Part shown: one piece after another, positions 27,837-34,344 of the stretch
Layout of the letters: each line of letters starts with the position of its first letter
Position numbering within the stretch: the first letter of the stretch is position 1
Sequence record: PQ529420
Strand: one strand, 5' to 3'
DNA from: Escherichia phage Eryne
DNA length: 64,000 nt
Made by a program: the position numbers and the translations under genes
The notes under the pieces: generated by a model
Seen by the model: the letters and a program-made list of their open reading frames with translations, nothing else
Told to the model about the DNA's origin: nothing
Database searches by the model: none

Positions 27837-28205
27837 ATGCAAGAGAATAGTAAAGTGTGTAGCATGAAAAGCAGCCCTTATTTGCTACAATTTTATGAGT
27901 GGTGGTTAGAACAAGAAGATACAAACTTTAGTAAAAAGCATTATGGTCTTTGCACGTGTCTTGTAGACTTCTTATACAATATTGCTTTGATAAAAGATGT
28001 TGAGAATGTAGCAAAGCTCCAATCCTCTGTACGAGAGGAAATGAAGGAACAATTTAAGAAAGCGGGTTTGAACCATTTACATCCGTTTAATACGGATTTC
28101 TCGCACTACTTTACGGAAACAGAACTAGGCATTGCACACCTTAATAAAGAACGTGTACAATGGGTGATTGATCGTATTCGTGATATGGAGGAATACAATG
28201 GTTAA
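27837..28205 (+). CDS. paralog family member 3
   Basis: LQFYEWW, GLCTCL, HPFN, RVQWVIDRI motifs; RBS AAGGAGAAG. Confidence 0.55.
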   Translation: MQENSKVCSMKSSPYLLQFYEWWLEQEDTNFSKKHYGLCTCLVDFLYNIALIKDVENVAKLQSSVREEMKEQFKKAGLNHLHPFNTDFSHYFTETELGIAHLNKERVQWVIDRIRDMEEYNG

Positions 28206-28407
28206 GTTTAAAACTTTCTGTGCAATCACTGTTTGTCTTATTCTTGCATACGTGTTATTCTCTAGTATCATTCGTTTAGGTGAGTATATGGCAAGAGAAG
28301 CTCGTGAAAGTGAAGCTAAAAAAGAACAGTGCATCGTGTTAAAGCACCAAAGGGATGCTGAAAAATTTCTTGAACAGGATTGTGGGCGCTATGTGAATTA
28401 TAATTAG
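28198..28407 (+). CDS. small membrane protein, paralog A (partner 33196-33420)
   Basis: Start moved to MVKFKTF; shares KEQCIVLKHQRDAEKFLEQDC with partner's KEKCIILKHKKQAEDFLKNKC. Confidence 0.5.
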   Translation: MVKFKTFCAITVCLILAYVLFSSIIRLGEYMAREARESEAKKEQCIVLKHQRDAEKFLEQDCGRYVNYN

Positions 28408-28416
28408 GAGGGAAGT

Positions 28417-28665
28417 ATGTTAGATATTTTTACCTTTGATCGTGTTGGTACACCGATTACCGAAGAAGAACGTACCAAAATTGAACAAGAATTGGATGCT
28501 TTACGTGCGTCTCTTACAGACACAGCCTCACTACAACGTGAAGCTGCACATCTCACAGAGATCACTGGTATTCAGTGGAGCACGGAGTGGGTTGTAATTA
28601 CAATTGAAGCGGATATTTGGGGACATGAAGAGACGCTACGTACCGGAGTAGTAACGGTTTGGTGA
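28417..28665 (+). CDS. hypothetical protein
   Basis: ORF track. Confidence 0.5.
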   Translation: MLDIFTFDRVGTPITEEERTKIEQELDALRASLTDTASLQREAAHLTEITGIQWSTEWVVITIEADIWGHEETLRTGVVTVW

Positions 28666-28711
28666 TAGATGTTATTCTTTTGTGTTTCTTGATATATAAA
28701 TAGGAGGGTTT

Positions 28712-28936
28712 ATGGTAAAACGTCTGGAATGGGATGCGTGTACTGCTCACGCTTGTCACTGTGATATTGTTGAAGATCCTAATGGAGAGATGGTGTATTA
28801 TGAGGATTACGAAGCATTGCACAATGCTGTGATTGCTTTACTGGATGATATTAGCTCACGCTATCCAGGACAACAATTCACGTGTCCACATATCCAACTA
28901 TTAGCCGAACTTACGGAGTATCCAAGTGTTCCATAA
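28712..28936 (+). CDS. Cys/His-rich small protein, paralog B (partner 34081-34344)
   Basis: CDIVEDPNGEMVYYEDYEAL versus partner CDIVPDPEGDYVLLADYNKL. Confidence 0.5.
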   Translation: MVKRLEWDACTAHACHCDIVEDPNGEMVYYEDYEALHNAVIALLDDISSRYPGQQFTCPHIQLLAELTEYPSVP

Positions 28937-28937
28937 T

Positions 28938-29105
28938 ATGGGTGTCCCTGAACAACTGCTCTTTATTGTAGGATTAGTAGGCTTATTGGCGGCTGGCGCT
29001 AAAGCCGCTTCTCACACGCATCACATAATGTTAAGATTTCTATTCCTACTCCCTTCTATCCTCGTACTATTAGTCATACTGATCGATAACATTTTGCACA
29101 ATTAA
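28938..29105 (+). CDS. small membrane protein (55 aa)
   Basis: Hand-translated MGVPEQLLFIVGLVGLLAAG... Confidence 0.35.
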   Translation: MGVPEQLLFIVGLVGLLAAGAKAASHTHHIMLRFLFLLPSILVLLVILIDNILHN

Positions 29106-29114
29106 GGAGAGGTT

Positions 29115-29699
29115 ATGAGTAAAATTATACCAAGCAGTTATGAATTATTACAGTTTTATGTGTATTATATAGACTGGGTTAGTAGATTGAATGTTAAAGA
29201 CAATGCGATGTTTAGTAAAAACATCTGTTTAACAGAAAGTATCTTCCGTTACTGGCACACAGGTAGAAAGTGTACACACAGTGAAGCTATGCGCATTGTA
29301 GGAGAATATCTGGAGCAATTGCAAAAAGCAGAGCTACCTGTCCTTCACCCATTCAATGAATCTAAAGAAGAATTAGAACAAGAGTGTAGAGAAGGTAAGT
29401 GCCATTTGAATGAAAAACGTATCGAATGGGTGAGGCAACGTTTAGCCGATGCAGGAAAGACTCCTAGTGACTCTGACTATACGTGGTATGATGTAGAGGG
29501 TTTAGTTCAAGGTTTTGAGGCTTGTGCTATAGATAATACCAACTTTGCCAAAGTTTTATGCGAGGCTTATGACCTGGCAGATAAAATCCGAAATCATGGA
29601 TGGAAACAAGAGCATAAAGAATCATATGAACGCCTTGACAAGATTTTCAAACAGATCTATTCTAACCACAAGAAGATGTTCCAAATGGAGGATGTGTAA
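29115..29699 (+). CDS. paralog family member 4 with C-terminal extension
   Basis: LLQFYVYY, HPFN, CHLN, RIEWVRQRL motifs; RBS AAGGAGAGG. Confidence 0.55.
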   Translation: MSKIIPSSYELLQFYVYYIDWVSRLNVKDNAMFSKNICLTESIFRYWHTGRKCTHSEAMRIVGEYLEQLQKAELPVLHPFNESKEELEQECREGKCHLNEKRIEWVRQRLADAGKTPSDSDYTWYDVEGLVQGFEACAIDNTNFAKVLCEAYDLADKIRNHGWKQEHKESYERLDKIFKQIYSNHKKMFQMEDV

Positions 29700-32724: not shown

Positions 32725-32972
32725 ATATCAAAGATGTTGTAGCATACGTAGAAGATGAAGTTAAAAACCATACAAGTTTACTGAAAGTAATGGTTGTGGT
32801 TAAAGATGGTATTGGACAAGTAAACGTACAACATGTCTTATCTGACACTGTATATAATGTGTTTGAATGTAAAGAAACACCTCATGGAGTACGTGTTGTT
32901 TATATTGATAACAATTTCAAAGAATGTGTGAGACATACCTTAGAAAATGAACTAAGGATCACAATCTTATGA
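32721..32972 (+). CDS. hypothetical protein
   Basis: ORF track. Confidence 0.5.
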   Translation: MNIKDVVAYVEDEVKNHTSLLKVMVVVKDGIGQVNVQHVLSDTVYNVFECKETPHGVRVVYIDNNFKECVRHTLENELRITIL

Positions 32973-33142
32973 GTTATTATGTTGTACCTTATGCCAATAA
33001 GTGGAGAGTAAGAGAAACTTGTTTTCTATTCTCCTGGTGGGCTACGTTCGGAGATGGTTGTGGAAATGATACAGGAAAGCCTGTAGAGTACGACACAAAA
33101 GAAGAATGTGAACAGTGGATAAAATTAACACAAAGATGTTGA
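32969..33142 (+). CDS. small Cys-containing protein (57 aa)
   Basis: Hand-translated MSYYVVPYANKWRVRETCF...; preferred over antisense ORF 32989-33222. Confidence 0.35.
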   Translation: MSYYVVPYANKWRVRETCFLFSWWATFGDGCGNDTGKPVEYDTKEECEQWIKLTQRC

Positions 33143-33195
33143 CACGATCTTAACTTCTTGTTAGTATCAATGTGTACTAACGATAAGGAGGGTTT

Positions 33196-33420
33196 ATGAA
33201 GTCTGTAAACAAGTTGCAACAATTTTTGTTATCAACAGCAATCTCTTTGCTTTTGTTAATTGGTATTCTGTATGGTGCATCTAACTTATACAATCTACAT
33301 AATGATGTAGAACAGAATAAAGAGAAGTGCATCATTCTAAAACACAAGAAACAAGCAGAAGATTTCTTAAAGAATAAGTGTTACAACTACATTGATTATG
33401 AGGAGACAAACAATGATTAA
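33196..33420 (+). CDS. small membrane protein, paralog A'
   Basis: See 28198-28407. Confidence 0.5.
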   Translation: MKSVNKLQQFLLSTAISLLLLIGILYGASNLYNLHNDVEQNKEKCIILKHKKQAEDFLKNKCYNYIDYEETNND

Positions 33421-33655
33421 AGAATTAGGTATGCGAGTATACAGTGAGTGGACTCCAAGCAATGGCCCAGGAGTTGTTGCAGCTAAATGTATCAATGGTC
33501 GTATTGAGTACCTGGAAGGGTATGAAGATAATGAAGAGTTAGTAGATTATGCTAAATCTTTTATTGAAGATGATACAGACTTTATTGTATTATATGATAC
33601 AGGAGAGTTAGAGTATGGATATGATGGAGATGGGGATATCTTTGAACTTCAATAA
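33413..33655 (+). CDS. hypothetical acidic protein
   Basis: Start moved to MIKELGM behind GAGGAG. Confidence 0.5.
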   Translation: MIKELGMRVYSEWTPSNGPGVVAAKCINGRIEYLEGYEDNEELVDYAKSFIEDDTDFIVLYDTGELEYGYDGDGDIFELQ

Positions 33656-33709
33656 GAGTAGTAAGTAAGGTATAAAGAGTATATAGTTAGTTATAGAGTT
33701 AGTAACATT

Positions 33710-33810
33710 ACATATACTCTTTCCATGTATAACATGGAATATTCTCTACCTCGCTATCGCTCGGTATATAAGATTAGGGTAGCATGTTTTTTACGAAAAG
33801 TAAAACTGTT
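33710..33810 (+). repeat. conserved structured intergenic element, copy 2
   Basis: See 4630-4750; hairpin ttccatgtataacatggaa then ctcgctatcgctcgg and ttagggtagcatgtttttt. Confidence 0.5.
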
Positions 33811-33862
33811 TATACCGATTGATAGCAGGTTTTTAATAGATTCTATCTATGAGGAGTAGAAA

Positions 33863-34081
33863 GTGTACAAATTATATAAAGGAAAAGATAAGTTTACGGG
33901 TAATACATCTGGTTTCTATGTAACACCACGTGGTGTTGCTGTATTTGATTGGATTCCTGGTACTCCAGATCGTGAAATGATTTCTCTTGTAAAACTGTCG
34001 GAACAAGAGTACACTTACGGTGACATTACAACATTCTATTCTCGTGCAGAAAATCCAAAACTGATTGCGGAGTGGGAATAA
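33863..34081 (+). CDS. hypothetical protein (GTG start)
   Basis: ORF track; RBS GAGGAG. Confidence 0.4.
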   Translation: MYKLYKGKDKFTGNTSGFYVTPRGVAVFDWIPGTPDREMISLVKLSEQEYTYGDITTFYSRAENPKLIAEWE

Positions 34082-34344
34082 TGGTTACACGATATGATTT
34101 AGAGGTGTACAGCCAAGGTGCTGCTGGTCAATGTGATATTGTACCAGATCCAGAAGGAGACTATGTTCTTCTTGCTGATTACAACAAGCTAGAAGAAAGA
34201 CTTCTGGCTGTGTATGCTAAAGAGAACAAAACAATCTGTCCTTATTGCAATGGAATGGGTTGGGTAGTTGCAGATGTTGGACAGATGTATGAATGTGTGC
34301 CTTGTAAAACCACAGGATTTATTGAAAAGGATACTGACAAATGA
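34081..34344 (+). CDS. Cys-rich small protein, paralog B' (CxxC pairs)
   Basis: See 28712-28936; CPYCNG...CVPCK zinc-ribbon-like. Confidence 0.5.
   Translation: MVTRYDLEVYSQGAAGQCDIVPDPEGDYVLLADYNKLEERLLAVYAKENKTICPYCNGMGWVVADVGQMYECVPCKTTGFIEKDTDK

Follow-up and report, generated by a model that had tools for sequence, protein, structure and literature searches.

Multi-copy families of small genes and the shuffling of modules among them are general features of the early regions of T4-like, T5-like and rV5-like phages. Some of the small early proteins of T4 are membrane proteins that act on the cell envelope, such as Imm and Sp in superinfection exclusion and RI, which carries a periplasmic antiholin domain. 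The locus described here is a typical example of such an early region, with nothing unusual about it. Its two related membrane proteins resemble Imm, Sp and RI in being very small and early, with one N-terminal membrane helix and a working part predicted to be extracytoplasmic. However, no described family resembles them in sequence or profile, and the conserved hairpin with a C-x16-C spacing is particular to their family. A similar way of working would be a guess by analogy.

We analyzed a window of 64,000 nucleotides from Escherichia phage Eryne (PQ529420), which represents the early genes of a myophage related to phi92 (Justusliebigvirus) and matched Justusliebigvirus genomes at 98.8% over 6.8 kb. 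Four open reading frames, here termed B, C, B', and C', had been described in a preliminary description as a membrane protein gene and a small protein gene that were duplicated together, the two pairs lying about 5 kb apart. All four were confirmed on the plus strand. They correspond to annotated coding sequences in the gene map of phage EmilieFrey (bas61_0153, 0155, 0169, and 0173) and in phi92 (gp007, gp008, gp022, and gp025), where a ribosome-binding site is annotated for each and no function is assigned to any of them. A literature search found nothing on these genes. The one-strand early array is packed with paralogue families, namely the A family (four genes), the B family (two), the N-terminal module of C and C' (two), and a zinc finger (two), and phage phAPEC8 holds further duplicated families.

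Table 1. Positions of genes and protein features in the analyzed window.
Feature	Coordinates	Strand	Description
A-family paralogues (four)	24981-25397, 25544-25912, 27837-28205, 29115-29699
A-family gene, phi92 gp006	27837-28205	+	122 aa; stop overlaps B start
B, phi92 gp007 type	28198-28407	+	69 aa; phrog_15662 (9.5e-33)
B membrane helix	28216-28272		about residues 7-25
B conserved C-terminal block	28312-28401		residues 39-68
X, between B and C	28417-28665	+	82 aa
C, phi92 gp008 type	28712-28936	+	74 aa; phrog_23083
C N-module	28712-28840		residues 1-43
Sigma-70-like promoter match	33139-33167	+	TTGACA, 17-nt spacer, TAGTAT, extended TG; consensus match only
B', phi92 gp022 type	33196-33420	+	74 aa; phrog_23204 (2.2e-49)
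B' membrane helix or signal sequence			about residues 10-28
B' conserved block	33310-33399		residues 39-68
gp023, overlaps B' end	33413-33655	+	80 aa
gp024, directly upstream of C'	33863-34081	+	72 aa
C', phi92 gp025 type	34081-34344	+	87 aa; phrog_22955
C' N-module	34081-34212		residues 1-44
C' zinc-finger part			residues 53-87; CxxCxGxG-type
C' DnaJ-like motif pair CPYCNGMG...CVPCKTTG	34237-34317		residues 53-79; joined to N-module

The two pairs differ in their surroundings. The start of B falls within the stop region of its upstream neighbour, the A-family gene, which is its conserved, overlapping partner, while B' is preceded by a 53-nt gap containing the promoter-like match. Gene X between B and C was found in the window phage and in EmilieFrey; it is missing from phi92, whose gp007 and gp008 lie side by side, and a homologue lies two genes past B in Klebsiella phage KP13-26. 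Between B' and C' lie gp023, gp024, and an ultra-conserved intergenic element, which belonged to no Rfam family and gave no significant structure upon folding. No relationship was detected between X and anything in the B'-C' interval.

B and B' are homologous, as the preliminary description had proposed. BLASTP aligned the conserved blocks at E 1e-10 (15/30 identical), and the pair was regained at 6e-8 in an all-against-all search of the 381 open reading frames of the window. Their Smith-Waterman score of 93 was reached by none of 5000 shuffles (mean 23 ± 4.4; z about 16). A profile comparison of B orthologues with B' by hhalign gave a probability of 98% (E 1.7e-13 over 54 columns), and the PHROG cross-matches were reciprocal (7e-7 and 2e-8); B, B', C, and C' each had a full-length match to their own PHROG, with E from 1e-32 to 1e-62. 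The likeness consists of a common membrane-helix architecture and the 30-residue C-terminal block, KKEQCIVLKHQRDAEKFLEQDCGRYVNY in B and NKEKCIILKHKKQAEDFLKNKCYNYIDY in B'; both proteins combine an N-terminal membrane helix with the C-x16-C block by which the family is defined. The helix is variable across the family and the C-terminal stretch is strongly conserved, with the motif KEQCIVLK[HY]QKxAEKFLDxDCxRYVRYKQDN and, among 23 sequences, invariant E43, C45, K49, A54, L58, C62, and Y68, which include the two cysteines. In both proteins the N-terminal flank of the helix has two basic and no acidic residues and the C-terminal flank is net acidic, and a SignalP signal is recorded for gp022 in the phi92 record. 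An AF2 model of B showed a helix at residues 2-50, a turn, and a helix at 54-59 (pLDDT 82). No relatives of B, B', C, and C' were found in Pfam, NCBIfam, or PDB, and no structural analogue turned up.

C and C' are likewise homologous, but only in their N-terminal 44 residues (N-module), the C-terminal halves being unrelated. BLASTP aligned residues 1-43 with 1-44 at E 7e-7 (16/44 identical), the all-against-all search regained the pair at 3e-4, and the Smith-Waterman score of 69 exceeded all of 5000 shuffles (mean 24.7 ± 4.6; z about 10). A C-family profile built without C' matched it by hhalign over columns 1-44 (97.4% probability, E 1.4e-11), and the PHROG cross-matches were again reciprocal (4e-4 and 3e-4). 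The module has the consensus MVxRY[DE]...EGx[FYW]VxYEDYxxLE, and both proteins matched its membership pattern (M[VI]xR[YL][DE], EGx[FYWM]V, [YL][EA]DYxxL). Its HMM scored 62.0 bits for C and 51.6 bits for C', with the next open reading frame of the window at E about 1. An AF2 model of C places two short strands and the beginning of a long helix in the module, suggesting a small unit made of a beta-hairpin and a helix.

The N-module was found on 90 small proteins from many unrelated phages, joined to six or more types of tail, a set that came from an alignment-based search (C as the lone query gave only four matches). Kagunavirus HSE2 has two N-module genes in tandem, and in Bas101_0087 the module is joined to an unrelated 95-residue C-terminal region. 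The tail of C, AVIALLDDISSRYPGQQFTCPHIQLLAEL, is common to phAPEC8 gp227 and HSE2 gp021. Residues 2-48 of C also matched positions 4-50 of the 182-position profile phrog_3592, a Lar-like restriction alleviation protein (E 7.7e-4). This match covers the N-module region only, and Pfam Lar (PF14354) missed both C and C'; it probably reflects the fusion of the N-module to Lar-type proteins in some phages rather than a Lar function.

The tail of C' is zinc-finger-like at the motif level only; CPYCNGMG is a full motif and CVPCKTTG a partial one. Compared with DnaJ zinc-finger proteins it has a single finger pair and lacks a J-domain, and its match to PF00684 (0.015; score 15.9 against a Pfam cut-off of 32.7) falls short of a domain assignment. 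Small phage zinc-ribbon proteins (phrog_13972 and DUF5351) were also comparable, and the finger matched phrog_13972 at 3e-9; the "DNA ligase" label of this PHROG is unsupported for a protein of 65-87 aa. Phapecoctavirus Schickermooser carries a 65-aa zinc-finger gene without the N-module, whose product is 61% identical to the C' finger over 33 residues. This gene occupies the same place, directly after the gp024 homologues and before the homologues of gp028, gp030, and gp031, and gp024 and the conserved intergenic element neighbour the zinc-finger gene in both Phapecoctavirus and KP13-26. The synteny indicates that there is ancestral DNA between B' and the N-module of C', and the C' zinc-finger gene occupied its position before it gained the module. 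The opposite idea, that the architecture of C' is ancestral and a hidden N-module persists in the KP13-26 and Schickermooser proteins, was rejected (hhalign 0.1%; BLASTP recovered only the finger and a weak linker).

The B family comprised more than 60 clusters, every one on contigs of about 140-155 kb, and it has two ancient types. The B type occurs across Stephanstirmvirinae-like phages, while the B' type was found in Justusliebigvirus and on one or more distantly related phage contigs of 151 kb. When 1.84 billion proteins were searched exhaustively, B' recovered, besides its own representative (P0037), only a truncated fusion variant and protein P0154 from a metagenomic contig of 151.5 kb (L009; ERZ19034208 scaffold_69). 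P0154 shares with B' the residues FLKNKCY and GILY and an acidic tail, and it paired with B', outside all B orthologues, in 188 of 200 bootstraps; this support is moderate, as only about 43 and 40 aligned residues went into the trees. The other early proteins of the P0154 phage are just 31-81% identical to those of the window. The shared residues, the grouping, and the divergence of the phage together suggest that the B' type predates the genus. Copy numbers in relatives, which the preliminary description had proposed to check, were as follows: B was also present in 55/55 Justusliebigvirus records matched by B' in tblastn, and Phapecoctavirus and the Klebsiella relatives showed one B-family copy. 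The same 55 records carried the module-plus-zinc-finger form, and tblastn with B' and C' found neither this form nor B' in any other isolate.

Both likenesses are real homologies, and they are best explained by two families of very small proteins, both old and separate from each other, each of which has two members in Justusliebigvirus. The second copies would have arisen or arrived separately, by old duplication with differential loss or by recombination with related phages, and domain shuffling would have been added to their separate origins. Joined with the roles proposed below, namely periplasmic hairpins for B and B' and a cytoplasmic module with a tail for C and C', we consider this account rather probable. 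The confinement of both B' and the module-plus-zinc-finger form to one genus among isolates runs counter to it and fits duplication within the lineage as well.

Two separate duplications within Justusliebigvirus, of B to give B' and of the 5' part of C onto the zinc-finger gene, with the copies outpacing their parents, would account for the genus restriction of the second copies and for the near absence of B'-type proteins elsewhere in the exhaustive search. Among young paralogues it is common for one copy to diverge fast. Nevertheless, P0154 has B'-specific residues and joins B' at 94% bootstrap, and it comes from a phage with strongly divergent early proteins, so we regard this alternative as unlikely.

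A single duplication of an adjacent B-C unit, which the preliminary description had inferred, would need deep divergence and the insertion of other genes between the copies, and the copy of C would have to become joined to a zinc-finger gene. The two family members do stand in the same order, phi92 has B and C directly next to each other, only Justusliebigvirus isolates are known to carry B' and the module-bearing C', and third-codon positions (about 40% identity) are similarly saturated in both pairs. However, all genes of the region are on the plus strand, so that the shared orientation is uninformative, and a matching order has a 50% prior chance. A comparison of 27800-29200 with 32900-34600 gave by blastn only a 38-bp stretch with 79% identity and by tblastx only two 30-codon blocks; the pairs are homologous nonetheless, but no collinear homology covers the whole block with its intervening and flanking DNA, and X has no homology to gp023, the intergenic element, or gp024. 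The second copies are also not sisters of the first. B' is nearer to P0154 than to B, and the C' module is no nearer to C (28 bits) than to the foreign modules of Bas101 (33.5 bits) and the Kagunavirus type (32.7 bits), a small difference. Moreover, in place of a single insertion point, the stretch from B' to the C' module contains gp024 and the intergenic element, and since they are ancestral beside the zinc-finger gene, an inserted block would need to have been split later. With the intervening genes unrelated, B' not the sister of B, and C' a mosaic, duplication of the two genes in one segment is not upheld and appears quite improbable.

A related candidate, gp023 as a degenerate copy of C, would have rescued a duplication of B-C into B'-gp023. 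The idea came from a natural chimera of C and gp023 (P0003, locus L008), whose junction is a microhomology of 9-10 nt, and from the motif NGRIEYLEGYEDNEEL. It was rejected, as hhalign gave 9%, BLASTP E 0.07, and the N-module HMM E 5.9, which is noise. A natural deletion variant of the L008 type suggests that the phage can do without B' and about 4.7 kb of early genes.

Adjacency in phi92, and proximity in the same order in phAPEC8 with four genes between, could also indicate that B and C form a functional cassette of a membrane protein and a cytoplasmic partner, kept in two versions. This is very improbable, because linkage of B and C is not conserved across phages: KP13-26 and L009 (16 kb of contig read) have no N-module gene within 5-8 kb of their B-type gene, Kagunaviruses have N-module genes and lack the B family, X separates B from C in the window and three features separate B' from C', and the overlapping conserved partner of B is the A-family gene. 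Chance or convergent likeness, conceivable because the aligned stretches are only 30 and 44 residues long and have a high content of K, E, and D, can practically be dismissed in view of the shuffles, the reciprocal profile matches with hhalign probabilities of 98% and 97%, the conserved cysteine spacing, and the identical positions within the proteins.

Within the favoured account of two old families, sequence features suggest that B and B' sit in the inner membrane in type II orientation (N-in, C-out) and may present a disulfide-stapled helical hairpin to the periplasm at an early stage of infection. Their most plausible target would be an envelope component, for example in superinfection exclusion or envelope takeover, and the two types may provide two specificities. 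C and C' are predicted to be cytoplasmic, with the N-module putatively serving for docking or oligomerisation and the tail, which varies, as a putative effector part. A bolder and improbable extension would make the N-module a coliphage docking domain that brings swappable effector tails to one host target, and B and B' two ancient specificity hairpins. The carriers of the docking domain would be Justusliebigvirus, Phapecoctavirus, Kagunavirus, and Bas101-like phages, and the hairpins would act against two different competitors or envelope proteins by blocking either their entry or their signalling. If this were true, the locus would sample two modular host-takeover toolkits and not redundant duplicates.

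The chief value of the analysis is a correction, namely that the order match of two weakly similar pairs in a one-strand array is not proof of a block duplication. Two families that are each present twice are ordinary for large phages; the by-products are modest and leave current understanding unchanged unless a function is found. Four PHROG families of unknown function are now linked and collapse into two: PHROGs keeps phrog_15662 and phrog_23204, and phrog_23083 and phrog_22955, separate and records neither the link nor the module and tail structure. One is a conserved family of membrane proteins with two cysteines that is restricted to phi92/phAPEC8-like phages, and the other defines a widespread N-terminal module with swappable tails.

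The 6.8 kb around the two gene pairs shared 96–99% identity with 55 genomes of Justusliebigvirus, phi92-like myophages of the subfamily Stephanstirmvirinae. According to the annotations of EmilieFrey and phi92, the 24–37 kb interval is an array of ~45 very small early genes, all on one strand and nearly all labelled 'hypothetical'. The four ORFs in the preliminary description, which encode the small membrane proteins B and B' and the small soluble proteins C and C', are all real genes.

Features of the Eryne early region and related loci
Feature	Coordinates	phi92 counterpart	Annotation or remark
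A-family paralogues	24981-25397, 25544-25912, 27837-28205, 29115-29699	gp006/gp010 type	phrog_2510 and phrog_27059
B	28198-28407	gp007	annotated gene with ribosome-binding site
X	28417-28665		82 aa, between B and C
C	28712-28936	gp008	annotated gene with ribosome-binding site
Eaa-like gene	29699-30385	gp011	'Eaa-like'
B'	33196-33420	gp022	annotated gene with ribosome-binding site; SignalP signal noted in phi92 record
44-aa ORF	33725-33859		annotated CDS in some records (e.g. bas61_0171)
Conserved element	33745-33810		single copy, non-coding, within gap 33656-33862
C'	34081-34344	gp025	annotated gene with ribosome-binding site; noted 'DnaJ-like zinc finger'
Second zinc-finger ORF	53550-53696 (- strand)		47-48 aa, CxxCxGxG type

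The paralogy proposed for B/B' and C/C' was borne out by BLASTP, shuffling, PHROG and profile comparisons. BLASTP aligned B with B' at 15/30 identities (E = 1e-10) and C with C' at 16/44 (E = 7e-7), and an all-against-all search of the 381 window ORFs recovered the pairs at 6e-8 and 3e-4, respectively. None of 5000 shuffles reached the observed local alignment scores (z ~16 for B/B' and ~10 for C/C'), and PHROG matches were reciprocal, each protein matching its partner's PHROG. A profile of diverse B orthologues matched B' with 98% probability across 54 aligned columns, while a C-family profile of 60 sequences, C' left out, matched C' residues 1–44 at 97.4%. The similarity thus reaches beyond the short motifs first quoted for B and B', whose whole architecture corresponds, whereas C and C' share only their N-terminal half. 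At the DNA level, one 38-bp stretch of 79% identity was left between the segments, and third-codon-position identity was ~40%.

The evidence argues against the single segmental duplication with subsequent divergence that had been proposed for the pairs. The window ORF search and segment comparison found no homology between the segments beyond B/B' and C/C'. Shared orientation is uninformative because all genes lie on one strand, and shared order has even odds of arising by chance. In Phapecoctavirus Schickermooser, the positional counterpart of the C' zinc-finger half is a 65-aa gene (61% identity over the finger) without the N-module, the N-terminal ~44 residues common to C and C'. This gene lies directly 3' of two homologues of gp024, the gene directly upstream of C', and is followed by homologues of window genes 35099-35281, 35497-35769 and 35783-36382. 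A conserved intergenic element stands ahead of the gp024/zinc-finger group in three lineages. Together, this synteny and the element indicate that the DNA lying between B' and the C' module is ancestral, so one inserted block cannot explain both. The gene gp023, which overlaps the end of B', was tested as a degenerate copy of C and rejected.

The syntenic counterparts of B and C in phAPEC8 are gp232 and gp227, and where copy number was checked, Phapecoctavirus and the Klebsiella relatives carried one B-family copy. When B' was searched exhaustively with HMMER against 1.84 billion proteins, the only matches were its own representative, a truncated fusion and P0154, a protein from a distant 151.5-kb phage contig with one B-family member within the 16 kb examined. 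P0154 has B'-specific residues and clustered with B' in 188 of 200 bootstrap replicates, and neighbour joining placed B' outside the whole set of B orthologues; for these reasons the B/B' split looks, from sequence, older than the genus. Duplication within the Justusliebigvirus lineage, with which the confinement of both B' and the module-bearing C' to this genus among isolates agrees, is unlikely. Strict en bloc duplication is more doubtful still, given the ancestral gp024 and element between B' and the C' module, the affinity of B' to P0154, and a C' module scoring slightly better against foreign modules than against C. Linkage of B and C was not conserved among the phages compared. The observation in the preliminary description is correct; its evolutionary reading is too simple.

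Paralogue families stood side by side in the window (four A, two B, two N-module and two zinc-finger members in the all-against-all ORF search), and further families were present in phAPEC8; early regions of large lytic phages normally look like this. The A paralogues, absent from the preliminary description, share the motif LHPFN...HLN.ER..WV with E-values of 1e-6 to 3e-32, and phAPEC8 has five. Gene X varies by insertion or deletion among members of the genus: the window and EmilieFrey have it, phi92 lacks it. Since its homologue in Klebsiella phage KP13-26 (43% identity) lies two genes after the B gene, X probably belongs to the ancestral gene set, with phi92 having lost it.

Alignment-based searches placed the B family in more than 60 clusters, all from ~140–155 kb contigs or short fragments. 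Its membrane helix is variable, and conservation is concentrated in a cysteine-bearing C-terminal block, KEQCIVLK[HY]QKxAEKFLDxDCxRYVRYKQDN, with two invariant cysteines spaced 17 positions. In B and B', the residues before the helix include two basic and no acidic ones, and the stretch after it is net acidic. The AF2 model of B (mean pLDDT 82) has a long helix (residues 2–50), a turn and a short helix (54–59). The simplest reading of the charges, the SignalP note and the model is that B and B' would be inner-membrane anchors, N-in and C-out, displaying a disulfide-stapled hairpin in the periplasm. There they would act on some envelope component early in infection, the obvious candidate roles being superinfection exclusion and envelope takeover. 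B begins within the stop region of the A-family gene upstream, as in phAPEC8, whereas B' is preceded by a 53-nt gap that holds a good sigma-70-like match, so the two may be regulated differently.

The N-module (MVQRY[DE]...EGx[FYW]VxYEDYAKLEA) occurred in 90 small proteins, mostly from Kagunavirus-like ~44 kb contigs, running on into at least six unrelated tails. Kagunavirus HSE2 has two tandem N-module genes, Bas101 joins the module to an unrelated 95-residue C-terminal region, the C-type protein of phAPEC8 is longer (151 aa), and C' carries a CxxCxGxG-type zinc finger. The AF2 model of C (pLDDT 84) showed two short strands, a long helix and a second helix. Because the module is strictly conserved and the tails vary freely, the module may be a shared docking or oligomerisation part and the tail a variable effector. 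Database and structure searches found no analogue. The extra C-terminal half of phAPEC8 gp227 (contig L003, 7229-7684) weakly resembles the N-terminus of the Eaa-like gene, another sign of module shuffling in the early region. The C-terminal half of C' has a relative in the second zinc-finger ORF, with E = 7e-4 in the search within the window; this ORF also matched phrog_8027 at 1e-11.

The intergenic element, laid out as CTACCTCGCTATCGCTCG, 12 variable nt, AGGGTAGCATGTTTTTT, 3 variable nt and AAAAGTAAA, was 100% identical across 51 Justusliebigvirus genomes, 92–93% in Klebsiella relatives, where flanking proteins share only ~40%, and 82% in Phapecoctavirus and PsgM04F, always upstream of gp024/zinc-finger genes. 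Its conserved bases lie in a different reading frame in Schickermooser and continue in frame into the zinc-finger ORF in KP13-26. Conservation is therefore at the DNA level, and the overlapping 44-aa ORF is probably not a gene. Rfam returned no family and no significant fold was found; promoter, operator, origin and small RNA are candidate roles.

Two variants were observed. In a Logan SRR3713844 contig (L008, 1-1550), window position ~28800 is joined to ~33525 at the microhomology TATGA(A/G)GAT, fusing C residues 1–31 to gp023 residues 38–80; the A and B genes lie 5' of the fusion and gp024 lies 3' of it. The ~4.7 kb absent spans gp009 to gp022, including the last A-family gene and B', which suggests that these genes are dispensable unless the contig is an assembly artefact. 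The protein P0153 (131 aa) has the first ~43 residues of B' (93% identity) followed by an unrelated 88-residue sequence and could have arisen by frameshift, recombination or faulty assembly. As leads, the side observations, above all the ultra-conserved intergenic element and the natural deletion that fuses C to gp023, hold more promise than the B/B' and C/C' paralogy.
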